From Candidatus Heimdallarchaeum aukensis (GTDB taxonomy: Archaea; Asgardarchaeota; Heimdallarchaeia; Heimdallarchaeales; Heimdallarchaeaceae): a stretch of DNA of 64,000 nt. Within the stretch, counting starts at the first letter, position 1. Every line of letters begins with the position of its first letter. The stretch lies in the NCBI GenBank assembly GCA_021513695.1, contig CP084166.1, positions 192,001-256,000 of the forward strand, read 5' to 3'. The notes beneath the pieces were generated by a model. The model ran no database searches. It saw nothing but the letters and a program-made list of their open reading frames with translations, and was not told the DNA's origin. A program made the translations under genes and the position numbers. Of the stretch, positions 9,973-59,424 are shown piece after piece.

Positions 9973-10045
9973 TAAGCACCTATATTTTTGTATATAGTCT
10001 CATATTTATTCTTTTCCGATATCATAAAAATTAATAGAAAAAAAC

Positions 10046-27158: not shown

Positions 27159-28229
27159 ATGTGTTGTGTCTCACACATTAAAATGAAGACCTATAAATTA
27201 ATGAAAGAAGATTTTCCACAATTTCTAAGTCTTCTGCAAGAAAAAGGGAATCTTTATGGTCCAGTAAAGTCAAAAAATCATTATTCTTTCGAAAAGATTG
27301 ATGATTTGTCTAAGTTGACTTTTGACTACACAAGGACGCTAATGGGATTAAAAAAATTTGTAACTCCTCCCAAGTATAAAGTAAAACATTTTGATAAATC
27401 AGGCTCAGAGGATGTAATTCCTGAAGATGAAACAAATATAGTAATTGGTGCTCATCCTTGTGATATCCATGCGATGAAAATTCTTGATAAGCTATTTCTA
27501 GGACAGATCAAAGACCCATATTATAAAAAAAGGAGAGAAAATTTGGTGATTGTTGGACACTCATGTTTGCCAGATGAGAACTGCCTTTGCACTTCGACAG
27601 GTACAGATATGGTGTCGGATGGATTTGATTTGTTCTTAACGGAACTACAAGATTTCTATTTAGTGTGGGTAGGTTCTAGTAAAGGTTTATTTATTATCAT
27701 GTCTTCAGAAGATTTGTTTAATGATAAAATAGAAATGTGTGACATTGCAGAATATACAAGTTGGCAAGAAAACAGACAAAATTCATTCAAGACGACTATT
27801 CCATTTCATTTAATGCCTGATATAGTCCATCTAATATATGAAGAAGATGAATTATGGGATCAATTTGGAGAAAAATGTTTAAGCTGTGGTACTTGCAGTC
27901 TTGTATGTCCAACATGTAATTGTTTCAATGTTGAAGATAAGATACTTATTCATGCCGATGAAGTAGTTAGAGAAAGAATGCTAGACAGTTGTACCCTACC
28001 CTACTACTCTGTAGTAGCAGGAGATCATGATTTTAGGCCTGACAGAACTAAGAGGTTGAAACTCTATTACACTCATAAATTAAAAGAATATATAGGAAAA
28101 TGGGGTCAACCAGCTTGTGTTGGTTGTGGACGATGTGTCACTTATTGTCCTGTTGGTATAAATGTTAAAACAGTTTCAAATGCTTTTTACGAAGCGATTC
28201 AATGTGTTCGGGAGGTAAAGAAAATATGA
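27159..28229 (+). CDS. hydB: Sulfhydrogenase/[NiFe] hydrogenase group 3b beta subunit (FeS). The true start is probably the ATG at 27183.
   Basis: Ferredoxin-like cysteine clusters are present (CLSCGTCSLVCPTCNC and CVGCGRCVTYCP). Its position is first in the hydBGDA order. Confidence 0.75.
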   Translation: MCCVSHIKMKTYKLMKEDFPQFLSLLQEKGNLYGPVKSKNHYSFEKIDDLSKLTFDYTRTLMGLKKFVTPPKYKVKHFDKSGSEDVIPEDETNIVIGAHPCDIHAMKILDKLFLGQIKDPYYKKRRENLVIVGHSCLPDENCLCTSTGTDMVSDGFDLFLTELQDFYLVWVGSSKGLFIIMSSEDLFNDKIEMCDIAEYTSWQENRQNSFKTTIPFHLMPDIVHLIYEEDELWDQFGEKCLSCGTCSLVCPTCNCFNVEDKILIHADEVVRERMLDSCTLPYYSVVAGDHDFRPDRTKRLKLYYTHKLKEYIGKWGQPACVGCGRCVTYCPVGINVKTVSNAFYEAIQCVREVKKI

Positions 28230-29086
28230 TATCAGATAGAACTAAATTAGAAAATCCATATGAAGACCATTTGGCTACAATCATTGATTATCGCGATTTA
28301 ACAAGCGATACAAGATATTATAAGTTGAAATTTGTAGAACCAGAAGTACAAGAACACACTGGTGATTACAAACCAGGTCAGTTTGCGATGTTCTCCATTC
28401 CTGGTGTTGGAGAAGCTCCATTCTCTATATCTTCAACTCCGACAAGACCAGCTTTTCTAGAGTTTGGAATTAGAAAAGTGGGTTCATTTACTGATGCTTT
28501 ATTCAAGAAAAAAGAAGGAGATACTGTTTATATCCGTGGTCCTTATGGAAATGGATTTGACATGAAAAGCATGGAGGGAAAAGATATAGTTATAGTAAGT
28601 GGAGGATTAGGTGCAGTTCCATTAAGATCTGTTTTACTTTATCTAGAAGATAAAAGAGAATTATATAATAATGTATTCTTCCTAAATGGAGCTAGAACAC
28701 CTGAAGATATGCTTTTTAAAGAAGACTTCTTAGCTATGCATGCAAGAGAAATAATTGAAACACATTTAACAGTAGATAAAGATCCTACTGGAGAATGGAA
28801 ACACAATGTAGGTGTTGTAACTACACTATTCGAAAAAATTAACGGTCGAGTGGATAAAGATAATGCATATGCCTTAATCTGTGGGCCCCCAGTAATGTAT
28901 AAATTCGTTATAAAAGAATTGCTAAAAATGGAATTTTCAAAGAAAAATATACTAATGACACTAGAAAGAAGAATGAAGTGTGGTCAAGGACACTGTGGAC
29001 ATTGTGCTATTCACGGTGTTTATACTTGCTTAGATGGACCAGTGTTTAACTACTGGGATTATGAACGTATGGTGGAGTTGATTTAA
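28226..29086 (+). CDS. hydG: Sulfhydrogenase gamma subunit (FAD/NAD(P)-binding oxidoreductase with 2Fe-2S C-terminal cysteines)
   Basis: The start overlaps the hydB stop as ATGA. RBS GGAGGT is at 28211. GGLGAVPL suggests an FNR-like fold. The C-terminal cysteines are CGQGHCGHC. Confidence 0.75.
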   Translation: MISDRTKLENPYEDHLATIIDYRDLTSDTRYYKLKFVEPEVQEHTGDYKPGQFAMFSIPGVGEAPFSISSTPTRPAFLEFGIRKVGSFTDALFKKKEGDTVYIRGPYGNGFDMKSMEGKDIVIVSGGLGAVPLRSVLLYLEDKRELYNNVFFLNGARTPEDMLFKEDFLAMHAREIIETHLTVDKDPTGEWKHNVGVVTTLFEKINGRVDKDNAYALICGPPVMYKFVIKELLKMEFSKKNILMTLERRMKCGQGHCGHCAIHGVYTCLDGPVFNYWDYERMVELI

Positions 29087-29087
29087 G

Positions 29088-29879
29088 ATGTGGACAAGTG
29101 AGCATAAACCTATTGTTGGTGTTTTTGGTTTCAGTGGTTGTGCTGGAGATCAGTTGCGATTAATTCATATGGAGGATGAACTTGTTAGTTTATTTACCAC
29201 AGCAGAGATTAAATTCTTTCATATGGCTCAATCTCATCAAGAAGTTGAGCATGTTGACATTGCTCTAGTTGAAGGTAGTATAAATACCAAAAAGCAACTT
29301 GAAGAACTGAAAGAGATACGTGAAAAATCTACTTTTCTAGTTGCATTAGGTACTTGTGCTTGTTTTGGCGGTATTCAATATTTGAACGAGAAAGATGAAG
29401 CTTTTGAAGAGCGATTTAGACATGTATACGGTTCAAATATCAAGAAAAAAGAATTTATAGTCGGAGAAGCTATCCCTCCTCAACCTTTATGCAACTTTGT
29501 AAAAGTCGATGCCATGGTTCCAGGATGTCCAATAGAAAAAGATAATCTTTTACCTATATACACTAAATTGATAAAAGGTATTAGACCTCAAAAATATCCT
29601 GCTCCCGTTTGCGTTGAATGTAAATTGGAAGGTAATGATTGTCTTCTTCTTCACGGTATTCCTTGTATAGGACCTGTGGTCTCTGCAGGTTGTGGAGCTA
29701 TATGCCCTAGTCATAATCTCCCATGTGTAGGTTGTTGGGGTCCTTATGAAGCAGCGAACTATAAATCAATGATTGACAAGCTCGAAGAGATAGGTGTAGA
29801 TAAAGAAACAGCGTTACGCAAGATCAAGTTATTTGGCGGAAGTAAGGCAGAAGAAGAATTGGAAAAGGTGATAAAATGA
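29088..29879 (+). CDS. hydD: [NiFe] hydrogenase small (delta) subunit
   Basis: GFSGCAGDQ and GTCACFGG are cluster motifs, followed by C-rich segments. It overlaps hydA by 4 nt. Confidence 0.75.
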   Translation: MWTSEHKPIVGVFGFSGCAGDQLRLIHMEDELVSLFTTAEIKFFHMAQSHQEVEHVDIALVEGSINTKKQLEELKEIREKSTFLVALGTCACFGGIQYLNEKDEAFEERFRHVYGSNIKKKEFIVGEAIPPQPLCNFVKVDAMVPGCPIEKDNLLPIYTKLIKGIRPQKYPAPVCVECKLEGNDCLLLHGIPCIGPVVSAGCGAICPSHNLPCVGCWGPYEAANYKSMIDKLEEIGVDKETALRKIKLFGGSKAEEELEKVIK

Positions 29880-31159
29880 GTAAGGATATTAATGTAAAAG
29901 TTCTCTCTCGTGTTGAGGGCGATGGAGGAATAAAAGTATATGTGAAGAACAATAAAGTGGAACAAGTGCTAGTTGATATTTTTGAAGGACCACGAATGAT
30001 CGAAGCTTTAGTAAGAGGAAAAACTTTTCAGGAAAACGTTTCTCTCGTATCAAGGATTTGTGCAATTTGTACAGTTTCACATCGTTATGCTTCAATCAAA
30101 GCAATAGAGAAAGCTCTGAAGGTTGAAGTTCCTGAGAAGATACAATTGTTAAGAAAACTTCTACATTTAGCTGAATATATAGAATCTCATATTTTACATG
30201 TTTACTTCTTAGCCCTTCCTGATTTCTTTAGGAAACCTAGTGCTATCGCTTTACTTCCTACACATAAAGAAACTGTTGTAGAAGCAATAACATTGAAGAA
30301 GTACGGAACAGAATTAATGAAATTGTTAATGGGGAGAAAGATTCATGGAGAAAATCCACAAGTAGGCGGTTTTGGAAGAATACCAACTAATAAAGAACTA
30401 GATGAATTTGCTGAAAAAGCAAAAGAATATATTCCTCAACTTGCTGCATTTATCGATGTGTTAGCTTCACTTGAAATACCAGATTATTGCGAGAGAGAAA
30501 CAACATTTATGTGTTGTAATCCTCCAAACAATGAATTTGGATTTGAAGGAGACACTATTCTTATTTCTACTGGAGAGGAATATCCTGTTGAAGAATACAA
30601 GAAACTAACAAATGAGCGAGTTGTTCCTCATTCATATGCTAAAAGATCAAGATACAAAGATAAACCATTCACCGTTGGAGCACTAGCAAGACTTATTTTA
30701 ATTGGTGATAGACTAACAGGATTAGCTAAAGAAAAATTTGAGAATTACTATAATGAAAAATGGAAAGTTAATCCATTATACAATAACTTAGCTCAAGCAA
30801 TAGAAGCTCTCTGGTCATTTGAACAGATTCCAGAACTAGTAGAAAAAATAAAGTCTCTTCCTGACTCAGAAATCGTTGAAGTGAAAAACCTTAACGGAAA
30901 AGCAACTGCAGCTGTTGAAGCTCCTAGAGGTATACTCTATCACACCTATGAAATTAAGGATGGAAAGATGGTCAGCGCTGACATTATTACACCAACTGCT
31001 CAATTCCTTGATGATGTTGAAGAGTACATTAGAGTTGCAGCAGAGAAGCTAATTGCCGAGAAAAACGAAGAAACCGAGTTACATTTAGAAATGATTGCTA
31101 GAGCTTATGATCCTTGTATCTCTTGCAGTTGCCACATGGTAAAACTAATTGAAGAATAA
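29876..31159 (+). CDS. hydA: [NiFe] hydrogenase large (alpha) subunit
   Basis: The N-terminal Ni-binding motif is RICAICTVSH (RxCxxCxxxH). The C-terminal motif is DPCISCSCH (DPCxxCxxH). Confidence 0.9.
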   Translation: MSKDINVKVLSRVEGDGGIKVYVKNNKVEQVLVDIFEGPRMIEALVRGKTFQENVSLVSRICAICTVSHRYASIKAIEKALKVEVPEKIQLLRKLLHLAEYIESHILHVYFLALPDFFRKPSAIALLPTHKETVVEAITLKKYGTELMKLLMGRKIHGENPQVGGFGRIPTNKELDEFAEKAKEYIPQLAAFIDVLASLEIPDYCERETTFMCCNPPNNEFGFEGDTILISTGEEYPVEEYKKLTNERVVPHSYAKRSRYKDKPFTVGALARLILIGDRLTGLAKEKFENYYNEKWKVNPLYNNLAQAIEALWSFEQIPELVEKIKSLPDSEIVEVKNLNGKATAAVEAPRGILYHTYEIKDGKMVSADIITPTAQFLDDVEEYIRVAAEKLIAEKNEETELHLEMIARAYDPCISCSCHMVKLIEE

Positions 31160-31170
31160 AAGTGTGGTAA

Positions 31171-31650
31171 TTGACAGAAGAAAATTCAAACCCTTTTTCT
31201 TTTTCTTGTTTTACAAAACCAGAACACACTGCTTTTCTTTGTTTTGGAAATTTAGATAGAAGTGATGACGCTATAGGTCTTCTTATAGCTCGAGATTTAA
31301 AAAACCTTTTTCCACACGTTTTTAGTGAAGAATTCGACGACCCCATTGGCGAACTACTAATGATTCTTGAAGATGAAAGTATAGAGTGCATAACTGTAAT
31401 TGATGCATGTGATCTAAAAGCTGAAAATGGAAGTGTAATTGTATCTTCTAATATTAAAGTTGCAGAAAGTCGTTTGAGTACACATACTATACCTATAAAG
31501 CAATTGATAGAACTGATCCACAACGAAGGAAAAGAATTTGTTTTTATTGGTGTTCAAGTTTATAATGTAGAATTTATGGGAGAAATGAGTGAAGAAGTAT
31601 TAAAAGCTAAAGAAAAAATCCTTTCTTGGTTTGTTAAAGAAAATCAATGA
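31171..31650 (+). CDS. hycI: Hydrogenase maturation endopeptidase (HycI/HybD family)
   Basis: LCFGNLDRSDDAIGLLIA matches the protease family N-terminus (GN.L..DDG.G). The gene lies directly downstream of the large subunit. Confidence 0.7.
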   Translation: MTEENSNPFSFSCFTKPEHTAFLCFGNLDRSDDAIGLLIARDLKNLFPHVFSEEFDDPIGELLMILEDESIECITVIDACDLKAENGSVIVSSNIKVAESRLSTHTIPIKQLIELIHNEGKEFVFIGVQVYNVEFMGEMSEEVLKAKEKILSWFVKENQ

Positions 31651-35161: not shown

Positions 35162-36112
35162 TTACTTTGTTAGAAACTCAAGTTTCTCGATATTAATAAA
35201 ACCAAAACTCACTAGATTTGAAAATAAAGAGAGAAAATAGGGGAAAGAAATAATTAATTCTTCATTCTTAAAAATCTCATAAATATCGTAAATCGTATGA
35301 TTAATATTTCCACAGCATTCTTTTAGCATTTTTATGAAAAGTTTGTAAACTTTAACTGGTGTCATCGGGAAAATCTCATCAAAATTTTTTTCGAATATAT
35401 CAATATTTGTTTTGTAACTGTGTGGAATAGCGATTCTAGATTGTAATAACAAATCCAACTCTAGCAATGAAATATCATCAGGGGGATTTTCAATAATTCT
35501 ATCAATGTAAGCAGGGATAAAAGCTAGTGAAAAATTGTCTAAATAAACAAGCTGTTCTATTAAATCGTTAATTTTCTTAATCCACAGTTGAGCTATTTTA
35601 GTATTTAGTGATGAATTGATGCAGATCTTAGTTTCTATGAAGTTGAGAATAGAGTATTCAACAATTTCATTGCACTGTTTATCAGTATTATTGGAATTCT
35701 CTTCAAGATAGTATATTTCTTCTCTTAATTTGTCTATTATCTTAAGAGAGTATAGGTTTACTCCTCCGTAATCAATCGTTGGGGTTAATATTTGCTGATT
35801 ATATTTTGAAATTGATGGTATTGGAATCCCGAATTCTACATCTTGTTCTCCTATTATTGAAGGTGTTTTATCAATATCCGTACGCAAAAGAACATGAGAT
35901 CTAACTGAATTGTTAGTGTCTATAAAGAGTTTTGTAGCTCTTAATGAGCTATCTCCACACTCATGTACATCTACAAGTTCAAAGATATCTTTACCTTCGT
36001 TCAAAAAAGGTAAAATCGTCTTTGGAATGAAAATTATTCTTTGTTTTTGACATGCTGTACATAAATACTCTATTGAAACTCGAGATTCAGCTCTTATTGT
36101 CAATTTCTTCAA
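35162..36112 (-). CDS. Hypothetical protein with N-terminal C-x2-C...H-x-C module; paralogue of 48127..48990
   Basis: It shares YLCTACQKQRI...DVHECG with YQCNICLKQRI...DVHKCKG in the other copy. The C-terminus is wHTH-like (...LFSNLVSFGFINIEKL). Confidence 0.4.
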   Translation of the reverse strand: MKKLTIRAESRVSIEYLCTACQKQRIIFIPKTILPFLNEGKDIFELVDVHECGDSSLRATKLFIDTNNSVRSHVLLRTDIDKTPSIIGEQDVEFGIPIPSISKYNQQILTPTIDYGGVNLYSLKIIDKLREEIYYLEENSNNTDKQCNEIVEYSILNFIETKICINSSLNTKIAQLWIKKINDLIEQLVYLDNFSLAFIPAYIDRIIENPPDDISLLELDLLLQSRIAIPHSYKTNIDIFEKNFDEIFPMTPVKVYKLFIKMLKECCGNINHTIYDIYEIFKNEELIISFPYFLSLFSNLVSFGFINIEKLEFLTK

Positions 36113-36507
36113 TAAAAAGTATACTTAATTATTTATATATTTATACATACGGTTTTTCTTTCTACTCGATGTGAAGAGAAATACTTGTTGTATGTAATTT
36201 ACAGAAAATGAGAACTTAAGTTTCAATGAACATATGACCATTTTCTAGCCAAAAAAGACCTGAAAGAAAGTCAGTGTTTTGAAAATAAAAAGATAAAAAT
36301 TTATTTGAAAACAATTTTATTAAATAGAACCTTTGTCAAACAGTTTCAAAGTAAATAGAAGAATGTTTAGTATAGTTTTCTTTTTTAGTTTAAAAGATTT
36401 AAAAAGGGAGTTTATAGTTTAAGAAAAAAACATTTATTCTTTTAATTGAATATTGTTAGAGTAGATAAGTTTTAATAGAATAAAGGTGAATTATATTAAG
36501 TAAACCA

Positions 36508-37092
36508 GTGGTACAAATGAACTCATTGAATCAAAACATCTTTAAAATCGTACTCCTTGGAGAAGGAGCTGTAGGAAAAACCTCTTTAAAACGAACTTAT
36601 ATGGGTGAAGAATTCGTAGAAGGATATAAAATGACAGTAGGTGCTGATTTCGCAGTCAAGAAACTGGAGGTAGATTTCTACAAAATAACTTTGCAGATAT
36701 GGGATCTAGCAGGGCAACCTAGGTTTGATGCGGTAAGAGAGGCATACTATAGAGGAGCTAAAGGAGCTTTACTAGTTTTTGATATCTCTAGACCAGAAAC
36801 ATACGAAATACTACCTAAATGGCTAAATGAGTTAATAAAAAACAGTGGTGGACGAAAGGTACCAATAATTCTAATTGGAAATAAATCTGACTTGCGCGAA
36901 AAACATGATCAAACTGTTCCAATTAACTATGCTGAAGATTATGCTGAAAAGCTAACAATGTGGTCTGGATATCACGTGTCTTACGTTGAAACAAGTGCAA
37001 AAACGGGAGAAAATGTAGAAAAAGCCTTTAGTGAATTAGCTCTTCAACTTGTACGTAATTTAGAAAAATTAAAAGTTGAACTAGGGATATAA
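36508..37092 (+). CDS. Rab/Ras-like small GTPase
   Basis: G1 is GEGAVGKT. G2 is YKMTVGADF. G3 is WDLAGQPRF. G4 is GNKSDL. G5 is ETSAK. There is no C-terminal prenylation motif. Confidence 0.85.
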   Translation: MVQMNSLNQNIFKIVLLGEGAVGKTSLKRTYMGEEFVEGYKMTVGADFAVKKLEVDFYKITLQIWDLAGQPRFDAVREAYYRGAKGALLVFDISRPETYEILPKWLNELIKNSGGRKVPIILIGNKSDLREKHDQTVPINYAEDYAEKLTMWSGYHVSYVETSAKTGENVEKAFSELALQLVRNLEKLKVELGI

Positions 37093-37096
37093 AAAA

Positions 37097-37867
37097 TTAC
37101 TTTCTAAAATATGGTATTTTTACATAAGGTAATTTAATAATAAATTTGTCTTTTGAATAAACAATTATTCCACCAAGTCCTTTAACACAATGTTCGATAA
37201 AATCTTGTTCTATTGACTTTACTTTTTCTCTTTTACCTAAAGTTTCAACCAATTTAAACTTATCATAAAGATTAATTTTAAATACAAAATCCAGCATGTT
37301 CTGCTCATTACTGTATATAATTATAATCTCTGAATTTTTTTGTTGTTGCAATAAGGATTGAAACATAAGATATTCAAATAGGATATCGAGATTTTCATCT
37401 TTAACTATACATAAATCAGCAGAACCTTCAGGAAAAATAATGTCTGGAGATTGTTTAGTATAATGAGTGAGAAGATAGTGAGAAGTTAATTCTTTTATGA
37501 ACTCATGCAAGTTAACAAATGTCTTTTTGTACAATCTTCTAGATAATAACGTTATCAACTGTCTAGTAAATTTAATTTTAAAAATACTCTCTTCTAAAAG
37601 TAGAAGTGATTCATTATTCTCAAAACTTCCTTCTTTCATTGCTGATAAAATACTTAAATTATATACTGTATGGAGAAGATTTCCCATGTCATGGGTTAAA
37701 ATTTCAACTATTTTTGTTGTTCTTTGGTTTTCAGTCTCTATTTCTCGAGTCTTAATTTTTAGATTTTTACTTAACTGATAATTCCAAAGAAATAGAGATA
37801 TGATTAATATAAGTACTAAAGCGAATATAGAGACTACAGCGATTAGAAAAATTGCATAGCTATTCAA
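37097..37867 (-). CDS. Membrane-anchored histidine-kinase-like protein (H-box present; ATPase domain degenerate)
   Basis: An N-terminal TM is followed by ILTHDMGNLLHTV (H-box). The C-terminus has VKGLGG (G2-like). No clear DxGxG was found. Confidence 0.4.
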   Translation of the reverse strand: MNSYAIFLIAVVSIFALVLILIISLFLWNYQLSKNLKIKTREIETENQRTTKIVEILTHDMGNLLHTVYNLSILSAMKEGSFENNESLLLLEESIFKIKFTRQLITLLSRRLYKKTFVNLHEFIKELTSHYLLTHYTKQSPDIIFPEGSADLCIVKDENLDILFEYLMFQSLLQQQKNSEIIIIYSNEQNMLDFVFKINLYDKFKLVETLGKREKVKSIEQDFIEHCVKGLGGIIVYSKDKFIIKLPYVKIPYFRK

Positions 37868-37953: not shown

Positions 37954-39330
37954 TTACCCTGAAACTGTAATATTGGCTATTGAAACAGCAGGAGCATCTA
38001 AAGGCCAAGGTGATTGTAGTACATCATCACCAATTGAAATAAAGTTTTCAAAGACTTGGTAATAGTTTCCTGCAATGCTTACAGATCTTAAAGGTAATGT
38101 ACGTTCTCCTTTTTCAATTAGAAAAGCGTTGTTTGAAGTTATACTGAAATCTCCTGTAATTACATTTGCTGTGAATAGTCCTATTGGTGTCTCTTCAATA
38201 TAGATTCCTTTATCTATTTCTGCTATCTGTTCTTCGAGGTTTTTCTTTACTGGTTCAACTACGAGTTTTCTAGGAGAAACACTTGGGATATTTTCGAAAG
38301 CAATTCCTCCCATCATACCTCCTCTGCTTGCATTAGCTGTTGTTTCTGTATTTGCAGCTTTAGCATACATTCTATCAAAGAGGAAAGTTTTCAAAATTCC
38401 TTTTTCGATGATTGAAGTTTTACCTACTGGGCTTCCTTCTCCGTCAATTGCTACTGTACTTTGACTTTCAGGTATTTGTCCGTCGTCAATTAAGTTGAAC
38501 CTTTCATCAGCAATCTTTTTACCTAGCTTGTCTCCTAAAGGATTCCTTTTTTCCACATATGCAGCTCCAGAGAGTGATTGCATAAATGGAACAGTAAGAA
38601 ATGCTGAAGAAGTATAAGGATGAAGTACAATAGGAAGTTTTTCACTCACATTAAAGGGTTTTGAACCTAAATGCTGAAAACCTTTTTCTACTGCTTTTTG
38701 ACCTAGTTCACTAATATCTTCATTCTTTCTACTAAGGACAAATTCAGATGCAGTTTTCCTATCTCCTTCTTTCATTACAACTGCATACGCTGATCCTCCA
38801 AAGACAGTAGATAAAGTAGAAACTAAACATCCTTCAGTAGTTCCAATAGCGTATCCTCTTACTACTTTTTCGACGTTTACAGATACACCTATGATTCTTT
38901 GATCATTTTTATCAACATTGTAAAGTAGTTCTGAAATTTTGTCTGCTAATTTCTCAGGAGTTAAATGTAAAACTTCATGGTCGAGAATACCATCTTTAGA
39001 TTGTTTACTTTCACTTACAAAACTTTCAAAAAGAGGATTTTTTGGGCTAGCTTTAGCAATAGCATAAGCTTTTCTTAAAGCTTCCTTGATTGATTTTTCA
39101 GAAAAACCAGTACAAGAGGAGAAACCTAGTTGTTTTCCTATTGCAACTCGAATTCCTACCCCCTGAACTACACCATCTCTACTGTCTACTTTACCTTTGT
39201 TTTCGCTTAAACTGGTCTCTAACGAATTATAAACAAAAGCTTCAGCAGACGGAATGTTAAGATCTCTAGCATATTTAATCGTAGTATCGGCAATATTCAA
39301 TATTTTTTCTCGTATTTCATTCAGTTCCAT
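37954..39330 (-). CDS. pmbA: TldE/PmbA family protein (peptidase U62, non-HExxxH partner)
   Basis: It has the U62 family architecture without the metal-binding motif. It overlaps the tldD stop by 1 nt. Confidence 0.65.
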   Translation of the reverse strand: MELNEIREKILNIADTTIKYARDLNIPSAEAFVYNSLETSLSENKGKVDSRDGVVQGVGIRVAIGKQLGFSSCTGFSEKSIKEALRKAYAIAKASPKNPLFESFVSESKQSKDGILDHEVLHLTPEKLADKISELLYNVDKNDQRIIGVSVNVEKVVRGYAIGTTEGCLVSTLSTVFGGSAYAVVMKEGDRKTASEFVLSRKNEDISELGQKAVEKGFQHLGSKPFNVSEKLPIVLHPYTSSAFLTVPFMQSLSGAAYVEKRNPLGDKLGKKIADERFNLIDDGQIPESQSTVAIDGEGSPVGKTSIIEKGILKTFLFDRMYAKAANTETTANASRGGMMGGIAFENIPSVSPRKLVVEPVKKNLEEQIAEIDKGIYIEETPIGLFTANVITGDFSITSNNAFLIEKGERTLPLRSVSIAGNYYQVFENFISIGDDVLQSPWPLDAPAVSIANITVSG

Positions 39331-40781
39331 TATTTTGCACCTCCAACTAAAACTTCATCTACAAGTAACTCTGCACCCCCAAGTCCAACAGGTAATGGAA
39401 ATTGTCCACCTTTACCACATCCACCAAAATAACCAGTCATAATGTTGAAATCTTTGGTTACTCCTTGAACTTGTTTGATTAATTCTAAGATATTTCCTGA
39501 AAGTGATGCATCTCTTACAGCATACTTTATCTCTCCATTTTCAACCCAATAACCTCTATTGCAATTGAATAGAAAGTTTCCATCTAAACCCACTTGACCA
39601 CCTGATGAAGAAACTGCATAAAAACCATCTTTAAGCTGTTCTAGAGCTTCCTCTAGACTTAAGTCTCCAGGAGCAAAGTAAGTATTTTTCATTCGTGGGA
39701 TAGGTGGATACATAAAGGTGATAGCTCTTGAATTTCCTGTTGGTTCAGCATTCATCTTTTTAGCTGTTCCTCTGTTATGTAAGTATCCTTTCAATACTCC
39801 TTTCTCTAAAAGAACAGTTTTGTCAGTTTTAATTCCTTGGTCATCATAAGGAAGCCACAGACCATTTGTTTCTCTTGGGATTGTTCCTTCATCGATAATT
39901 GTTGCCATTTCAGTACCTAAAACTTCGCCTATTTTATCAGATAATGGAGACATTCCAGTTACAACAAAATCACTTTCAGATAAATGTCCAAAGGATTCGT
40001 GAGCCAATACTCCTCCTAATCTCCATCCAATAAGGGCTTTCTGTTTTCCCGCTTTAATTGGCTTTGCTTCAGTTTGCTCTTTGCAATATTTTCCAGCATT
40101 GGTTCCAATTGTTTCAGGAAGATATTTCTCTTTTTCAAAAACTTCTAAACCAAGTGAAGAACCAATTCCATCAATACCCATAGCTCTTTTTCCTTCAATC
40201 ATGGATATAGCTTGTATTCGAAGGTCAACTATCAAAGGTTGCCAGAAGATTTCACTTTCTTCAGAATTCACAAAATATTTGTCTCCATATAGTTCTCCGT
40301 ATAACCCTGTTGTACTACTCGGTTGAATGTGATTTTCAATAGCTTTTACTCCCCGTTTTAACATGGATAATTTTTCATCAAACTCTACATTCTTAGGGTG
40401 CTTCTTTACCTCTGTAAATTGTTTATCAACAATAGGATTCTGTGTTTCAAATTCCATTTTGACTTTATTTCTAGGAGCTGTTGCTTTAGCTATCTTGACT
40501 GCATTTTCAACTGTCTGAAGAATACTTTCCCAGTTTCTCTCTGGAGTGAAAGAAAAACCAGGAGAACCATCGAAATAAGCCATTATTCCAAAACCTTTTC
40601 TTAATTTAGTAGAAGCCTCTCTAATTCTTTCGTTGAGCAGATTAACTGTCATTAAGCTCATATCATCGTATCTAGCCTCAACAAAATCTGCTCCTAAATC
40701 TAATCCTTTATTTACTGCTTTATGTAGTAAATCAAAAATATATTCGTCTATAGCCTTCATCTCGAAAACAACATTGCTCAA
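39330..40781 (-). CDS. tldD: TldD family metalloprotease
   Basis: GVLAHESFGHLSE carries the HExxxH motif. The glycine-rich C-terminus reads GGCGKGGQ. Confidence 0.75.
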   Translation of the reverse strand: MSNVVFEMKAIDEYIFDLLHKAVNKGLDLGADFVEARYDDMSLMTVNLLNERIREASTKLRKGFGIMAYFDGSPGFSFTPERNWESILQTVENAVKIAKATAPRNKVKMEFETQNPIVDKQFTEVKKHPKNVEFDEKLSMLKRGVKAIENHIQPSSTTGLYGELYGDKYFVNSEESEIFWQPLIVDLRIQAISMIEGKRAMGIDGIGSSLGLEVFEKEKYLPETIGTNAGKYCKEQTEAKPIKAGKQKALIGWRLGGVLAHESFGHLSESDFVVTGMSPLSDKIGEVLGTEMATIIDEGTIPRETNGLWLPYDDQGIKTDKTVLLEKGVLKGYLHNRGTAKKMNAEPTGNSRAITFMYPPIPRMKNTYFAPGDLSLEEALEQLKDGFYAVSSSGGQVGLDGNFLFNCNRGYWVENGEIKYAVRDASLSGNILELIKQVQGVTKDFNIMTGYFGGCGKGGQFPLPVGLGGAELLVDEVLVGGAK

Positions 40782-40885: not shown

Positions 40886-42922
40886 TTACTCAAAATAAAC
40901 TTCTTTGATCTTTGTATCAATATATTCTTTTATTTCTTCATATTCCAATATATCTTCATGAGGATACTCTAATAGCTTTTTTTCAATCAAGACGGCTATT
41001 TCTTCAGTCTTTTTCTTTAGTGCATACGAAAAACGGTCTACGAATAAAGCAATTGTAAATTCACTTTTTCCTAATAAAAGCATTATATATTCAGAGTGTT
41101 CCAAAATTCTTAGCTCTCCTTTCTTTAGTTTTAGAGTTTTGCTTATATTTTTTATAGCATTAATCATTCCAACAATAAGCAACTCATCAGAATGGAAAAT
41201 ATCTCCATAAGAGTAACTATAGAAAGGAACATTTTCAACAATTAATAAGAAATGAAAAAGATGGAAGTTATTTCTACTGCTTCTAATCTCTGAAGTGAGT
41301 AATCCCTTTGTAGTGTATTGTTTTATTAGATTATCTATTTCTAAAGAAAAATCCATAGAAAAGGGAGTTTGTTCGAATTCTGAGTTTGCTTTTGCCTTCT
41401 TTAGTAGTTGATAGATTTGTCTAATATTCTCTTCTTTATAATTTAAATTATGCTTTTTACATATTATTTCCACTCTTTTTAGCAAATCTTCTGAAAGGTG
41501 AAGTTTGTTTGTATATATGTAAACTGTTGCTAATAGCAACATATAATTTACTAATTGATAAAAGGCATTAAGTTCTTTCAATAGAATAATTATTTCTTGA
41601 GAATATAACTCGATTTCCTCTAATATTTTTTGCTTATTAATTTTATTAGTCTCGATTTTAAACATTACAAGATATAATTCAATCAAGTAAAGAAGAGCAT
41701 TTAATGCTTGGGGAAAAAGGTTCAATTCTCTGGCATAATTTATTCCTTTTAGTAAATAATCTCTGGATGAATAGTAATTCATTTTATAAAATTCAAAAAT
41801 GCCTTTAGTTGTAATATAGGTAGTATAATAAGCGTTAAGTTTAGGCTCATCTAATTTAAATGTCTTTGAATATTTTTCTAAATACAATCCTGCTTTATCA
41901 AAATTGTTAGATATAGCGTATGTCTCTGCTGCTAAAGGATAAATATAATCAAGAGCAATATTGTATTGTTCACTAATTTTAATAGCCTGTTCTAGAAATT
42001 TAAGGGATTCAGGAATGTTATTTAACAGTCTGTAAGCATAGATTATTTCTGCATTTATCATGGCTATATTTCTTAATTCTTTCTTTTTTTCCATAAAAAT
42101 AAGAATGTTAAATAAGTGTTTTAAACCCTCTTTGAAAAATCCTTGTTTGAGCAAAACTACTGCATAATTTGCTTTAGCAACTATTTTTCCTCTTTCAATT
42201 TTTTCAGAACTGAATAATTTAATTGCCTCTGCATAGGCAACCTTACTTTCTATTATTGATCCAGAATAAAGAAGGCAATTTCCTTGCATATTTAGTAAAT
42301 ATGCGTGCAAGTAAACATCTGAAATATCATGTTTTAGGATTTTTTGTAATGCTTTCTCTGAAATGTAAATTCCTTTAATATATTGATGTTTCATGTAGTT
42401 GAACAAGGTTTCTGTATAAAGATACATTATTTCGTAAAATCTACAAAGTTTTTTATCTTTTTCAAATTCACTAACTTGGTCCAATATCTCTAATGCTTTA
42501 TTCAAATATTCTTCTGCTTGCTCAAGTTCGTTTATAACAGAATAGTATTCTACTACATGAAGAAAAAAATCAAAAAGATAGATAATTTGAGTATTGATTT
42601 TACCTTTATCCAGTTTTTCTATTATTTCTTCGATTTTTGGATAATCTCCTTGTATTGCTACAATACGCGAAAAAGAAGCAAAAATTTCAAAAGATTTAAA
42701 CTTCAGATAAAACTCTGATAATTTTTCTCTATCATCATAAATTAATAGAATTTTAGCAATTAAAGCTTGATAATCTGAAGGAACTGAAGAAGATAGAATT
42801 TCATCCCAATACTTTAGGATTGTATTGTAGAAATCAAAATAAGTGTTAAACAACTTTGGATGCATTTTTCCATGTAAGAAATCTTCTTCTAAAAACCTCT
42901 CATATCGCTTTATTTGCATCAT
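40886..42922 (-). CDS. Large TPR-repeat protein with C-terminal roadblock/LC7-like domain (paralogue 1)
   Basis: The 678 aa product has TPR-like amphipathic repeats through the central part. The C-terminus reads FHLFHFLLIVENVPFYSYSYGD...LIVGMINAIKNISKTL...FTIALFVDRF. Confidence 0.5.
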   Translation of the reverse strand: MMQIKRYERFLEEDFLHGKMHPKLFNTYFDFYNTILKYWDEILSSSVPSDYQALIAKILLIYDDREKLSEFYLKFKSFEIFASFSRIVAIQGDYPKIEEIIEKLDKGKINTQIIYLFDFFLHVVEYYSVINELEQAEEYLNKALEILDQVSEFEKDKKLCRFYEIMYLYTETLFNYMKHQYIKGIYISEKALQKILKHDISDVYLHAYLLNMQGNCLLYSGSIIESKVAYAEAIKLFSSEKIERGKIVAKANYAVVLLKQGFFKEGLKHLFNILIFMEKKKELRNIAMINAEIIYAYRLLNNIPESLKFLEQAIKISEQYNIALDYIYPLAAETYAISNNFDKAGLYLEKYSKTFKLDEPKLNAYYTTYITTKGIFEFYKMNYYSSRDYLLKGINYARELNLFPQALNALLYLIELYLVMFKIETNKINKQKILEEIELYSQEIIILLKELNAFYQLVNYMLLLATVYIYTNKLHLSEDLLKRVEIICKKHNLNYKEENIRQIYQLLKKAKANSEFEQTPFSMDFSLEIDNLIKQYTTKGLLTSEIRSSRNNFHLFHFLLIVENVPFYSYSYGDIFHSDELLIVGMINAIKNISKTLKLKKGELRILEHSEYIMLLLGKSEFTIALFVDRFSYALKKKTEEIAVLIEKKLLEYPHEDILEYEEIKEYIDTKIKEVYFE

Positions 42923-43046: not shown

Positions 43047-45095
43047 CTACTTTTCAAATATTTCAATTCTTAAATTATCTATTTCTTGTTTTATAGGAGT
43101 TAAAATCTTATTGGTAAAATAGTCAATCTGCAAAACTTCTGTTTGTTGCAATAAACTCTCAATTTTGTTAGCAAATTGAATCAAACGTTCTTTTACAGAA
43201 TAATAGAACTCATCAATGAAGAGAACAACTGAATATTTCTTTCGTTTTTCAATCATTACTATAAAATCAGTAAACTCGATAAGCTTAAAGATTCCATGTT
43301 TTTTTGTCAGAGAGTCACTGAACGATTCAATAGCTTTGAATAATCCAGATAGAAGAAGTTGTTTTTCTTCAATTTTTTCTCCTTTAAATTGATGTGAATA
43401 TAATGGTAAACCGTTAAAGTGAATAATTATTAGATTTATTAGGTGATCTTTGTTATATAAATTGAGGTTTACTTCTATGTTCCTAATTTCTGTAGAAGGT
43501 TTCTGTAATGTTTTTGTTATACTATTCAAACTGAATATTTGAAGAGCTTTATCATCTAACTTTTCAGGATTCTGTTCCATTTTTTTCAGTGTTTGCATTT
43601 CACGTAAAATTTCTTTAAGTTGAGTATTCATATTGTAGTTTTTACATAACTCTACAGTTAAAGAGTAAATATGGTTCGCAAGATCGAATTTCTCCTGAAG
43701 TGCATAAATCCTAGCTAAAAGTAATTGAAAATCTATTTTTAAGTAAATGTTGCTGTGTTTTCGTAATATTAGGGATATCTCTTCGCAAATTTCCTCTAAT
43801 TCACTTATAATTTCTTCAGAATACTGTATTTGTAATTTCTTAATCAAGTAAATTGAATGATATTTCAGTCCAGTTAGATAAAGGGGAAAATTTTTGATAC
43901 TTTTAGCTATTTCTATTCCTTTTTCCAGGAAAATAGATGCATTGTATAAATTTCCTCTTATTAATTCGTAATATCCCTTTAAAGAATAAAATGCACCATT
44001 ATGGAAACTGATGTTTTCTTTATCTTTTAAGATAATATTTTCAAATGTTTTCAAAAGTTTTTCAACAATATCAAATTTTTGAATTTGTATTGCGAACTCG
44101 ATTGATGATATTAATACTTCGTCGTCATAGACTAATCTTGTTTCTAAGAGTTTTATATTTTCTTTAAGATATTCTACTGCTTTTTCTGTTTTACCAATTT
44201 CTATTAGGCATTGCATAATCTCTCTATTTATTAAAGCTACATTTCTCAACTCATTGTTTTCAGAGAAAAATTCTTTGATTTTTATTAACTTAGGTAGAGC
44301 TTCTTTATGTTTTCCGAGTTTGATATCTAAAGAAGCTATATTTCCTTCTGTTACAATTTTTCCTCGATTATTATTCATTTCATTAAACAAATTAAATGAT
44401 TTATAGTAATTTGACTTCGATTGTTTAAGCAACCCTTTAAACATGTAAGCGTTACCTAGAGTGTTGTAAGTAACTGCTAAAAGAAATTCATCTGTTTTTT
44501 CAATATTTTCTAATATTTTTTTGGCTTCACTAAAGTAAAAAATAGCTTTATCTGACTCTCGATATCTAAAAACAGTGAAACCCAGAGTATAGAATAAATT
44601 TGCTTGAAGAAAAAGAAACAATTGACCTTCACTCTTATTTAAGAGAAGTTTGCATTGTGAAATTAGCTGAGAAGCTAATTCATTATTGAAAGTTGTAGCA
44701 AATATTTTTATTTCAGAGTTGTAGAAGTAAAATCTAGGAAAAATTGAAGATTTAGAAATAGATGCTAGATCAGTTTCTGCAATATATGTTTGTGCTTTAA
44801 TTAATCCTCTTTTTAATCGTAATATGTTGAGTAAAGGGCCTAAAGTTTCGATTGAATTATATTTTTTATAAAGAAATTCTAATTTATCATATTCTCCATA
44901 CATATTAAACAAATAACTAATTAAAAATTGAACATCAGGGGGTATGAAAATGTCTCTTATCTTTTTCCAATAATTTTGAACATTTCTGTAAAGATTAAAC
45001 TCTTTCACTTCTGTTATAGTTTTTAACTTTAGATATTTTTTTATCCAATTTTGATCATCAGAGTTTAATAACTGTAAATACCAATCCAAAACCAT
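43047..45095 (-). CDS. Large TPR-repeat protein with C-terminal roadblock/LC7-like domain (paralogue 2)
   Basis: The 682 aa product has the same architecture as paralogue 1. The C-terminus LIIIHFNGLPLYSHQF...LLLSGLFKAIESFSDSL...YSVVLFIDEF fits the roadblock alpha-beta-beta pattern. Confidence 0.5.
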   Translation of the reverse strand: MVLDWYLQLLNSDDQNWIKKYLKLKTITEVKEFNLYRNVQNYWKKIRDIFIPPDVQFLISYLFNMYGEYDKLEFLYKKYNSIETLGPLLNILRLKRGLIKAQTYIAETDLASISKSSIFPRFYFYNSEIKIFATTFNNELASQLISQCKLLLNKSEGQLFLFLQANLFYTLGFTVFRYRESDKAIFYFSEAKKILENIEKTDEFLLAVTYNTLGNAYMFKGLLKQSKSNYYKSFNLFNEMNNNRGKIVTEGNIASLDIKLGKHKEALPKLIKIKEFFSENNELRNVALINREIMQCLIEIGKTEKAVEYLKENIKLLETRLVYDDEVLISSIEFAIQIQKFDIVEKLLKTFENIILKDKENISFHNGAFYSLKGYYELIRGNLYNASIFLEKGIEIAKSIKNFPLYLTGLKYHSIYLIKKLQIQYSEEIISELEEICEEISLILRKHSNIYLKIDFQLLLARIYALQEKFDLANHIYSLTVELCKNYNMNTQLKEILREMQTLKKMEQNPEKLDDKALQIFSLNSITKTLQKPSTEIRNIEVNLNLYNKDHLINLIIIHFNGLPLYSHQFKGEKIEEKQLLLSGLFKAIESFSDSLTKKHGIFKLIEFTDFIVMIEKRKKYSVVLFIDEFYYSVKERLIQFANKIESLLQQTEVLQIDYFTNKILTPIKQEIDNLRIEIFEK

Positions 45096-45104
45096 ATTTT
45101 TCCC

Positions 45105-45800
45105 CTAAGTATATCTATCTTTAGGTCTCCTTTCTGGTATCATTTCAATTTCTTGATTTTTTGTGAAATCATAATCTTTCTTAAAGAATAGAGCACAATA
45201 GCATCTTCCATATTCATTGATATCTTCTTCTGCATAATCACAAGGACAACAAATATCTCTATCAAGCTGAATATTTTCGTTTGTATCTCGACAAGGACAA
45301 TTAAAATAACCTATTCTATTATAATTATCTTTTAGTCCTTGTATTAACATGTCTAAAGTTCCATCGTTATTTGGATGTAACTTCCAATTCTTCTTTTTAG
45401 CTATATTCTGAACATATTTCTTTACTTCTTCAAAAGTTTTTGACTTTTTACTTCTTCCAATACCATGAAAGAGTTTCTCCCATTTCTTTTTGTTAAATCC
45501 CATTTCATATTTTTCTCCGTCAATAACTACGAATGGAAAAGCTATAAACTCCAAATTAAAAGCATGTCTTATTTCTTTTTTGATCTCTTTTTTTTCATTA
45601 TAGTTTATTAGATCTATATCGATAAAATAGTAAGAAATTTTATTATCTTTTAGCCAATTTTTACTTTTTTTACACCATTGACATGTAGAGATAGCAAAGA
45701 GAAAAACTTCAAAATCAGTTGTTGAATCTTCAAATAGCTCTAAATTATAGTTTGGCAAACTCTTAATTTTTTTTGCTATCTTTAAGTTTAGTTTCTCCAT
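45105..45800 (-). CDS. Glutaredoxin-like / ferredoxin:thioredoxin-reductase catalytic-subunit-like fusion
   Basis: The N-terminal half has the CxxC motif CQWC. The C-terminal half reads CPCRDTNENIQLDRDICCPCDYAEEDINEYGRCYCALF, an FTRc-like motif with Tyr in place of the usual His. Confidence 0.6.
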   Translation of the reverse strand: MEKLNLKIAKKIKSLPNYNLELFEDSTTDFEVFLFAISTCQWCKKSKNWLKDNKISYYFIDIDLINYNEKKEIKKEIRHAFNLEFIAFPFVVIDGEKYEMGFNKKKWEKLFHGIGRSKKSKTFEEVKKYVQNIAKKKNWKLHPNNDGTLDMLIQGLKDNYNRIGYFNCPCRDTNENIQLDRDICCPCDYAEEDINEYGRCYCALFFKKDYDFTKNQEIEMIPERRPKDRYT

Positions 45801-48126: not shown

Positions 48127-48990
48127 TTATTTTTTATCTACAAAATTTATGGTTAAGATATTAATTATACCTTTTTCAACTAAATTAGCTAAGATTGCGA
48201 TATATTCACTAAAAGAAAAATTATACTTTAGTTCATTGTATATTAGTAATATGTTGTTTTTATCATTGTTTTTACACTTTTCAATAATAGAAGCTAGATT
48301 TCGACTTTCAACAGTATCAAGGTCATTAAAAATCTCTCCAAATTCAGTGTCTTCTTTTATAGTTTGAGGAATTGAGCAAATACTATTTATTATTAATTCA
48401 AGAGCAAGTTTATCGCTCAAGTTCATCTCGTTCGTTACCTTATCATCTAAAAATTTTAGTACAAGTTCTAAAGCTTTGACATCAATATAGGTTGCTTTAG
48501 AGTAAGCTTCTTCAATTCCAGTTAACCATTTTTTAACTTGTTTTTTCTGAACTTCTTTTTCTGTTAATATTTGAATTTCAAGGAATTGGTCATCAATAAT
48601 TATTTTATCTAAGTCGTTTTTTTTAGTTTGATCAAAAACAAATATCTTATTTCTAATTTTATCGTTTATTTGGAAATAATCAATGTTTCTGATTCTAATA
48701 AGATGATCAGTAATGATTTCAATTTTCGATCTCTCTACTTTTTGAGGAGAAGGAAGAGGAAGTCCAGGAATACTAGATTCATCATTTTCCTTTTTTACTG
48801 GAATCTGTGTCCTTACATTTAAATCAGAATCCACATGAAGTAGAATAGCATTTTCCTTATTACCTTTGCATTTGTGAACATCAATAATATCCATTAAACC
48901 TCTCGTATCTACATTAAAATTTATATTTTCAGGAAGACCCATTATTCTTTGTTTTAAGCAGATGTTACATTGATATTCTATCTTCTTCAT
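48127..48990 (-). CDS. Hypothetical protein, paralogue of 35162..36112 (C-x2-C...H-x-C N-terminus, wHTH-like C-terminus)
   Basis: YQCNICLKQRI...IDVHKCKG; C-terminus ...IAILANLVEKGIINIL. Confidence 0.4.
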   Translation of the reverse strand: MKKIEYQCNICLKQRIMGLPENINFNVDTRGLMDIIDVHKCKGNKENAILLHVDSDLNVRTQIPVKKENDESSIPGLPLPSPQKVERSKIEIITDHLIRIRNIDYFQINDKIRNKIFVFDQTKKNDLDKIIIDDQFLEIQILTEKEVQKKQVKKWLTGIEEAYSKATYIDVKALELVLKFLDDKVTNEMNLSDKLALELIINSICSIPQTIKEDTEFGEIFNDLDTVESRNLASIIEKCKNNDKNNILLIYNELKYNFSFSEYIAILANLVEKGIINILTINFVDKK

Positions 48991-58428: not shown

Positions 58429-59424
58429 TTGTTGTTAGTGTTAAAACAAAAAAGAAATAAAAAGATAGTTTGTGCTCTTACAATGACCTCTCTACGCGAA
58501 ATTATCAAACCAAACAAAAAGTTCAATCTAATCAATTTAGATGAAAAAAAAACTGTAGAATTTTGGATTATTTGCTTAGTTGTTGTTATAGATTTGATTT
58601 TTTCAGTTATCATAAATTTGGTTATTTATCGCTTTGGAATATTTAATTGGATTTACGATATAACAGGTTTTGTAACGCCAACAATGCTTGCTTATACAAT
58701 ATTATATTTAGTTATTATAGGTTTATTAATAATTTATTTAGGAAAGCTAAAACCTAAAGATTTAGGATTTTCAACTAGCAAACTTTGGCAAGGTGTTTTA
58801 ATTGTGTTTGTTGGTTGGTTCATTATTCAAATTGCAGGTGTAATTTATTCACTAATTATAAGTGGGACATTAACAATTGATAGTTATATGGTTCAATCTT
58901 CTGCAAAGTTAATAATTATAAAAAACGTTGTTCAATGGTTTTTTAATGCACCATTTGAAGAATTTTTATTTAGAGAATTTTTACTTACACAACTATATTT
59001 ACAGTTCAAAAATAGATTAATTGATGATCCTAAATCGGTTAAGAAGTCTCTAACTCGTTCTTTGATAATATCACAACTAATATTCTCGTTTATGCATATT
59101 CCAAATCGTATTCTATGGGTAGTGAGTTCAGAAAGTTATACTGTAAAAGAAATAATCTGGGCAGCGGTTAATCCTCTTCAATACGGAGTTTTGTTCCTAA
59201 TAGGATTAACATTTGCCATGTTGTATCACAGGACTGATAATATTTTCATTGTTATAGGAATACATGCACTTTTTAATGAACCTAACTCTTTGTTCTTTCC
59301 TAAATGGATAGGTTCAATCTTAATTTATGTTCTTGCAATAATTATAATCCTTTTCTATCCGTTTTTCTTGAGTAAATACTCTAAAGAAAAAGAAATAATT
59401 ATTGAAAAAGATAAAATCCCTTAA
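58429..59424 (+). CDS. CPBP (CAAX protease/Abi) family intramembrane metalloprotease
   Basis: EEFLFREF is motif 1 (EExxxR). FSFMHIPN is motif 2 (FxxxH). HALFN is motif 3. Confidence 0.7.
   Translation: MLLVLKQKRNKKIVCALTMTSLREIIKPNKKFNLINLDEKKTVEFWIICLVVVIDLIFSVIINLVIYRFGIFNWIYDITGFVTPTMLAYTILYLVIIGLLIIYLGKLKPKDLGFSTSKLWQGVLIVFVGWFIIQIAGVIYSLIISGTLTIDSYMVQSSAKLIIIKNVVQWFFNAPFEEFLFREFLLTQLYLQFKNRLIDDPKSVKKSLTRSLIISQLIFSFMHIPNRILWVVSSESYTVKEIIWAAVNPLQYGVLFLIGLTFAMLYHRTDNIFIVIGIHALFNEPNSLFFPKWIGSILIYVLAIIIILFYPFFLSKYSKEKEIIIEKDKIP

Follow-up and report, generated by a model that had tools for sequence, protein, structure and literature searches.

The window analysed here is a stretch of 64,000 nt from the closed genome of Candidatus Heimdallarchaeum aukensis (contig CP084166.1, positions 192,001 to 256,000 of the forward strand), and the system under study within it consists of a gene encoding a small GTPase of Rab-like type together with two nearby genes, p678 and p682, whose products are built of tetratricopeptide repeats (TPR) and end in a predicted longin domain that current annotation has missed. 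The combination of a small GTPase with longin or roadblock regulators is central to ideas on the Asgard origin of eukaryotic membrane trafficking, and to our knowledge a regulator has been identified for hardly any GTPase of archaea. The GTPase gene stands alone on the plus strand, flanked on either side by minus-strand genes (locus tags of the neighbours K9W45_00880 to 00910). The divergent p316 lies upstream of it, and p256, a PmbA/TldD pair and the tandem p678 and p682 follow downstream; it forms no operon with any of these neighbours.

The open reading frame (ORF) of the GTPase begins with a GTG at 36508 and ends at 37092 on the plus strand. Translation probably starts at the ATG at 36517, which is the start used in public records and is equivalent to the Met at which the relative from a more distant member of the Heimdallarchaeaceae (L003) begins, giving a protein of 191 aa (36517..37092) that could be extended to the GTG at 36508. 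Upstream of it lies a divergent, AT-rich intergenic region of 404 bp (36113..36516, plus strand) that accommodates the promoter and leader of the GTPase gene. The proximal ~90 nt of this spacer were nearly identical in an alignment with Ca. H. endolithica, and a scan with Rfam detected no RNA family in the window, including the spacer itself.

The sequence-only reading of this DNA had described a Rab/Ras-like GTPase of Asgard type with five intact G motifs, a Rab-like G2 and no prenylation motif, and all of this was borne out. The motifs read in the sequence are G1, GEGAVGKT(S) (36559-36585); G2, corresponding to switch I and RabF1, with its Thr in YKMTVGADF (36625-36651); G3, DLAGQ (36703-36717); G4, NKSD (36880-36891); and G5, ETSAK (36988-37002), all on the plus strand. 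The protein matched Pfam Ras with E=9.9e-49 (165.5 bits, cutoff 21.6) and Roc with 4e-30, as well as NCBIfam small_GTP TIGR00231 with E=4e-28 (98 bits, cutoff 42.5). It is identical to UJG41030.1, and its public names are 'GTP-binding protein' or 'Rab family GTPase'. It is an ordinary, already annotated Rab-like GTPase, and its membership of the Ras superfamily is secure, the agreement being much greater than chance would allow. Judged by its canonical P-loop, switch I Thr, catalytic Gln of the DxxGQ motif and NKxD and SAK specificity motifs, it should act as a guanine-nucleotide switch.

The closest solved structure in a PDB search was the Thorarchaeota Rab 7EZB (E=3e-40), followed by Rab11, Ypt31/32, Rab30, Rab14, Rab7 and Rab1. 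The Rab family motifs RabF1 to RabF5, as defined by Pereira-Leal and Seabra, are reportedly IGVDF, KLQIW, RFrsiT, YYRGA and LVYDIT. Inspection of the PDB alignment, made without a Rab-specific profile, revealed VGADF, TLQIW(D), RFDAVR, YYRGA and LVFDIS at these places; RabF3 has diverged, and the other four come close to the definition. In the alignment to 7EZB, the position of the intrinsic switch I Arg of Thor-Rab and MglA is occupied by Met. The protein ends in ...LEKLKVELGI and contains no Cys residue at all, and therefore no prenylation motif (CC, CXC or CAAX) is possible in it. Elsewhere in the window a gene at 58429..59424 (plus strand) encodes a protein of the Rce1-like type II CAAX prenyl endopeptidase family, which is probably an unrelated protease of the CPBP family.

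The two TPR proteins of about 680 aa that had been noticed near the GTPase are encoded in tandem on the minus strand: p678 (40886..42922; 678 aa) and p682 (43047..45095; 682 aa), paralogues with 25% identity over their full length. Public records name them 'hypothetical', 'tetratricopeptide repeat protein' or 'MalT-like TPR region'. According to the hidden Markov model (HMM) of the family described below, each protein has one longin domain, located at the C-terminus, the rest being TPR. In p682, where it follows the TPR solenoid, the domain covers residues ~552-682 (about 43050-43442, minus strand) and carries the signature G-L-P-x-Y-S in its b1-b2 loop; in p678 it lies at about 40889-41260 (minus strand), shows the motif EN-VPFYSY and matched the longin-family HMM with E=1e-36. 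The Gly of the G-x-P motif is near-invariant, and among 29 longin-family domains only that of p678 and those of its two orthologues were without it. This asymmetry within the tandem recalls the pairs of active and degenerate subunits in eukaryotic longin complexes.

The ends of both proteins had been proposed to be roadblock/LC7-like. The last ~140 residues of p678 and p682 matched neither Robl_LC7 nor any curated longin model nor any other Pfam family, even at E<=10. An AlphaFold2 (AF2) run with a 2-sequence alignment was unusable, with a predicted local distance difference test score (pLDDT) of 44, and the run used was based on a 48-sequence alignment, which gave a pLDDT of 86.5 and a predicted TM-score (pTM) of 0.80. 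The order of elements in this model is b-b-a-b-b-b-a-a, with a five-stranded sheet and a structure similar to those of known longins; because this order is the longin topology, the C-termini of p678 and p682 are assigned a longin fold on the strength of the model. Roadblock domains differ from longins by an N-terminal helix (PMC10933270), whereas the model ends in two helices and shows no packing of a helix at the N-terminus; roadblock folds aligned with it over only ~100 of 145 residues. Thus, the earlier proposal had the right superfamily (roadblock/longin), but the predicted topology and the missing Robl_LC7 match place both domains on its longin side.

To define the family, an exhaustive HMMER search with both C-termini was used, which recovered 140 cluster representatives at E<=1e-3. 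A word-indexed search was nearly empty (two matches for the full TPR protein and three for the longin alignment), probably as a result of low-complexity words. Members of the family were found at the end of TPR proteins of ~600-750 aa, at the end of proteins of ~250-400 aa, alone as proteins of 120-160 aa, and occasionally twice in the same protein. When the family profile was compared with PDB sequences, the first longin domain of MON1 ranked first (E=0.006), Bet5 and further subunits of TRAPP came next, and the MON1 alignment kept the most conserved positions of the family, namely the G-x-P-x-Y-S of the b1-b2 turn together with the G..A of helix 1. Sub-threshold Pfam matches of family members were to Fuz_longin_1 (0.05-0.1), Intu_longin_1 (0.04), Sybindin (0.02) and Robl_LC7. 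As regards the 'GP motif + Arg finger' signature of GTPase-activating proteins (GAPs) of the FLCN/SMCR8 type, the family has G-x-P in place of GP, and an R or K at the start of b3 is frequent and not invariant, a pattern that speaks neither for nor against such a signature; GP motifs of the GAP type in longins of Heimdall archaea are a subject of the literature (PMC12290439). The MON1-like longin domain of both TPR proteins is a new, so far unannotated feature.

Two HMMs, one of the longin family and one of the GTPase, were then run on every locus retrieved. The longin family is statistically co-localised with the GTPase clade. A longin-family gene was present at 9 of the 14 non-redundant loci with GTPases at least 47% identical to that of the window, usually within 5 kb (range 0.3-5 kb), compared to a single weak match at the 74 loci of more distant Rab-like GTPases (Fisher p=3e-8). 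Elsewhere in Heimdall sequence, stray members of the family occurred at a density of about one per 200 kb, from which ~7% would be expected per locus.

The architectures of the longin genes found near the GTPase clade vary and include TPR-longin proteins, proteins of ~370 aa with a C-terminal longin, fusions of longin with a winged helix-turn-helix (wHTH) and one 2334-aa protein with immunoglobulin (Ig) repeats. At locus L019 (GTPase 67% identical) a 677-aa TPR-longin gene lies 3.1 kb upstream and a gene for a 367-aa protein with a C-terminal longin lies 0.4 kb downstream, accompanied by two more members. At L020 (64%) a 642-aa TPR-longin gene was found 5 kb upstream, and the same gene, cut by the contig edge, was found at L005 (65%); at L007 (65%) the family is represented 2.7 kb away by a 378-aa protein whose longin is C-terminal. 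At L024/L025 and L026 (48-52%) the gene 0.3 kb downstream encodes a longin plus winged helix, and at L104 (53%) a divergent 2334-aa Ig-repeat protein contains the longin domain.

Some of these loci deserve separate description. The longin-wHTH genes (L024 2958..4013, L025 3796..4764 and L026 1279..2268, all on the minus strand) encode an N-terminal longin and a HTH_24/AsnC-type domain and are convergent with the GTPase genes; their position beside Rab-like GTPases suggests a link from GTPase to transcription. The Ig-repeat protein of L104 (2849..9853, minus strand) is of the Big/PKD-like type, with its longin at residues ~2130-2232, and the GTPase gene of that locus (10001..10615, plus strand; 53% identical to that of the window) lies 148 bp from it in divergent orientation. 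A gene of ~95-100 aa for a ThiS-like protein, with a ubiquitin fold, was found downstream of the GTPase in L005, L007, L019 and L020, directly after it in L019 and otherwise after a two-gene thiamine pyrophosphate (TPP) enzyme pair. L007 and L019 also have, close by, genes for an aldehyde:ferredoxin oxidoreductase and for another GTPase, which is Arf-like.

The partnership of the GTPase with the TPR proteins that the sequence-only reading had raised is thus supported as an association between families (9/14 vs. 1/74 loci), but neither as an operon nor at the level of orthologues, and several observations weigh against it. Within the window, the GTPase gene is on the opposite strand to the TPR-longin pair, with three genes between them and no operon. 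The TPR-longins of L019 and L020 form a clade deeply separate from p678/p682 (BLAST scores of 20-50 bits), and therefore the link exists at the family and not at the orthologue level. Positional orthology of the window locus with L019/L020 by way of a shared PALP gene was considered and rejected, as the PALP proteins are only ~26% identical. The loci in the co-localisation count share ancestry and are not phylogenetically independent, and the control loci with distant GTPases are mostly from non-Heimdall Asgard archaea, in such a way that taxonomy and GTPase clade are confounded. For the GTPases with 64-67% identity, orthology to the window gene or to P0034, the in-genome paralogue of H. aukensis (59% identity), is ambiguous, and the locus of P0034 has a Robl_LC7 gene instead of a longin-family gene. 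This gene (L021 6960..7487, plus strand) encodes a 175-aa protein and lies 2.5 kb upstream of P0034.

Gene order adds to these reservations. The exact order of the locus is conserved only within the Heimdallarchaeaceae, being kept in Ca. H. endolithica (L009, protein identities of 82-94%) and in a JGI contig (L008). In L003, where the GTPase is 74% identical, the block p316-GTPase-p256-PmbA-TldD is kept and a partial ORF at the contig end corresponds to the C-terminus of a p682-like TPR-longin; the block GTPase-p256-PmbA-TldD-TPR-longin is therefore retained down to 74% GTPase identity. GTPases at 64-67% identity were found in a different context, TrmO-GTPase-TPP enzyme-ThiS. A scan of the genome collection for the p682 subfamily, made with a 10-sequence alignment, returned ten loci, all from Heimdallarchaeota, and at the eight p678/p682-like loci other than those of the window (30-35% identity) there was no Ras-like GTPase within +-10 kb, nor any TldD/PmbA gene or gene for the glutaredoxin and ferredoxin-thioredoxin reductase fusion (Grx-FTR) described below. 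The conservation of the neighbourhood in related genomes that had been anticipated thus failed beyond close relatives as far as orthologues are concerned. The comparison had also been directed at Lokiarchaeia, whereas the locus (Ca. H. aukensis, UJG41030.1) belongs to Heimdallarchaeia.

These data would also fit a GTPase that stands alone, with no partners encoded nearby, its apparent association being produced by inherited gene order and by the abundance of longin and roadblock paralogues in Heimdall genomes. The gene looks monocistronic between its opposite-strand flanks, the exact order is confined to close relatives, the relatives at 64-67% are in the TrmO context, and p678/p682-like genes occur elsewhere without GTPase neighbours; furthermore, Asgard genomes hold dozens of GTPases and many longin and roadblock families (10.1101/2020.10.19.343400). 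Such an explanation has to accommodate, however, that longins of varied architectures and clades lie 0.3-5 kb from members of the GTPase clade at 9 of 14 loci, against ~7% expected and 1 of 74 for distant GTPases, and we consider it rather unlikely, though serious.

The genes that immediately flank the GTPase were examined as another source of partners. The divergent Cys-rich protein noticed upstream is p316 (35162..36112, minus strand; 316 aa), which bears an N-terminal CxxC...HxC motif and matched no family in Pfam (to E<=10) or NCBIfam. A paralogue of it is encoded at 48127..48990 (minus strand; 287 aa, 25% identity), and an N-terminal CxxC...DVHxC motif is common to both. A profile built from five members of the p316 family produced one weak match (E=0.006), to CdvA, a division protein of crenarchaea, and on this single match p316 may be CdvA-like. 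On the other side, p256 (37097..37867, minus strand; 256 aa) is a single-pass membrane protein convergent with the GTPase, the two stop codons being 4 bp apart. It evolves fast, with 36% identity in L003 where the adjacent GTPase has 74%. It had been presented as an H-box histidine-kinase-like membrane protein; its membrane nature and the H-box-like motif LTHDMGNLL, invariant in the alignment of three orthologues, were confirmed, but neither Pfam at E<=10 nor NCBIfam nor a PDB search with a three-orthologue profile detected a HisKA or HATPase_c domain, and its identity as a histidine kinase was rejected for want of any profile match.

Could these two proteins be the partners, with p256 serving the GTPase, which has no lipid, as its receptor or anchor at the membrane and p316 contributing through its putative Zn motif? 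The trio p316-GTPase-p256 is intact in L003 despite identities of only 44% for p316 and 36% for p256 and despite five genes inserted just upstream; p256 is anchored in the membrane, whereas the GTPase has no lipid anchor, and the ends of their genes almost touch. However, none of the loci examined for other members of the GTPase clade has a homologue of p256 or p316 adjoining the GTPase, neither protein matches a domain family, and synteny in L003 is still generally intact (AMP-ligase 75%, TldD 78%), so that the retained adjacency is weak evidence. The chance of this arrangement is in our opinion slim.

The tldD-pmbA pair that had been recognized earlier shares the strand of p256 and of the TPR-longin genes and is located between them. 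It comprises a PmbA-like gene (37954..39330, minus strand) and a TldD-like gene (39330..40781, minus strand), both with all three PmbA_TldD Pfam domains above cutoff; the latter also matched the archaeal TldD model of NCBIfam with 9e-84, a value that stays below the equivalog cutoff of this model. The pair is real, and its tie to the GTPase is lineage-specific; most likely, p256, p316 and TldD/PmbA are merely lineage-specific neighbours of the GTPase. On the far side of the TPR-longin pair, a gene at 45105..45800 (minus strand) encodes the Grx-FTR fusion, in which a glutaredoxin is joined to the catalytic subunit of ferredoxin-thioredoxin reductase. It ends 9 bp before p682, is preceded on the same strand by nitroreductase and peroxiredoxin genes, and has this linkage with the TPR-longin pair in Heimdallarchaeum alone.

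This arrangement raises the alternative that the TPR-longin genes, TldD/PmbA and the redox genes (Grx-FTR, nitroreductase and peroxiredoxin) constitute one minus-strand unit unrelated to the GTPase. The genes share a strand and are separated by short gaps of 9, 124, 104, -1 and 86 bp from 45800 to 37097, and their order is kept in H. endolithica and partly in L003. Nevertheless, TldD/PmbA and Grx-FTR are absent from the eight other p678/p682-like loci and from L019/L020, and we know of no role of longin domains with TldD/E proteases, which makes such a unit improbable.

Dimers of longin and roadblock domains serve as guanine-nucleotide exchange factors (GEFs), as GAPs or as platform modules, as in Mon1-Ccz1, TRAPP, FLCN-FNIP and MglB. 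Because of these known roles, together with the predicted fold and the co-localisation statistics, we favour, with confidence no better than even, that the GTPase is a Rab-like switch bound and regulated by MON1-like longin-family proteins, represented here by the tandem TPR-longin pair. The GTPase has neither a Cys for a lipid anchor nor the intrinsic Arg, and therefore its fast cycling and its localisation should depend on partners. Experiments have shown that Thor-Rab hydrolyses GTP slowly, and it is expected to need a GAP and a GEF (PMC10933270). The best candidates at this locus would be p678 and p682, which lie 3.8 kb from the GTPase gene. Dimerisation, which is general among longin and roadblock domains, is predicted for their longins too, and the dimer could then offer a platform for the switch regions of the GTPase and serve as its exchange factor or as its GAP, while the TPR solenoids may recruit other proteins. 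The physical interaction, the dimerisation and the direction of the effect (GEF or GAP) are our inference.

In a more specific version of this regulation, p678/p682 would correspond, in archaea, to the heterodimeric longin Rab-GEFs of eukaryotes (Mon1-Ccz1, BLOC-3 and CPLANE) and would activate the GTPase. In it, the two paralogues would pair through their MON1-like longins, one of them having a degenerate G-x-P motif, and the TPR solenoids would replace the additional longin domains as scaffolds. We regard this version as doubtful.

Two further gene groups of the window are recorded here. A gene at 6409..9393 (minus strand) encodes a 994-aa protein with an N-terminal RING finger (zf-RING_2) and a ResIII/DEAD helicase core, a eukaryote-like RING-helicase architecture. 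A cluster of five genes at 27159..31650 (plus strand) encodes a [NiFe]-hydrogenase, with Fe-S, FAD/NAD-binding, small and large subunits and the HycI maturation protease.

The locus offers a concrete and testable set, formed by one GTPase (UJG41030.1) and two TPR proteins in a closed Heimdallarchaeum genome. If the TPR-longins are GEFs or GAPs, regulation of Rabs on longin platforms predates eukaryogenesis, and if the heterodimeric GEF version applies, a module of Rab and longin GEF existed in Heimdallarchaeia before eukaryotic endomembranes. If they are not regulators, the locus is one more of the many that hold Asgard GTPase genes.

Among the characterized systems, Thor-Rab (7EZB, PMC10933270) resembles the GTPase in its DLAGQ switch II, its Rab motifs, its short, Cys-free C-terminus and its single domain. 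It differs in Arg37 of switch I, described as an intrinsic arginine of the MglA type (PMC10933270) and shared with MglA, which is Met in the protein of the window. The latter also has a 6-residue insertion before G5 (KLTMWSGYHVSY) and belongs to a Heimdallarchaeaceae-specific branch. Compared to eukaryotic Rabs (Rab11/Ypt31-32, Rab7 and Rab1), the GTPase shows 35-40% identity over the G domain, with the same G motifs and motifs largely of the RabF type, but is devoid of the hypervariable tail and of the cysteines for geranylgeranylation; no homologues of REP or of the Rab geranylgeranyltransferase were reported in Asgard sequence databases (PMC10933270).

With respect to the putative regulators, p678 and p682 have a single longin each and not three as in Mon1-Ccz1, BLOC-3 (HPS1-HPS4) and CPLANE (Fuz-Intu). 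In both, the longin is preceded by a TPR solenoid of ~540 aa that has no equivalent in the eukaryotic proteins of the Mon1-Ccz1 type or in TRAPP, and the sequence similarity to the longins of these complexes is marginal (E=0.006 to 0.1). In contrast to the MglA/MglB system, the GTPase is Rab-like (no intrinsic Arg; DLAGQ) and not MglA-like, the partner domain is predicted to have longin and not roadblock topology, and the genes are on opposite strands and are not co-transcribed; a roadblock gene was detected by neither the Pfam nor the HMM scans of the locus.

Among Asgard archaea, GTPases of Rab-like type, proteins with roadblock or longin domains and the genomic linkage between them are established themes (PMC10933270; 10.1101/2020.10.19.343400), and a conserved operon of roadblock, Rab-like GTPase and DENN has been described in Asgard archaea (10.1101/2020.10.19.343400; PMC10936438). 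Compared to these published neighbourhoods, the present locus has no DENN, Vps28-C or LAMTOR1-like component. Within the limited literature accessible to us, no description was found of the plain architecture of TPR plus C-terminal MON1-like longin or of its link to the GTPase clade, and the asCOG tables probably contain this longin family. Asgard longins are known to combine with TPR, Ig-like and HTH domains (10.1101/2020.10.19.343400; PMC10936438), and the same kinds of fusion recur here near the GTPase clade.

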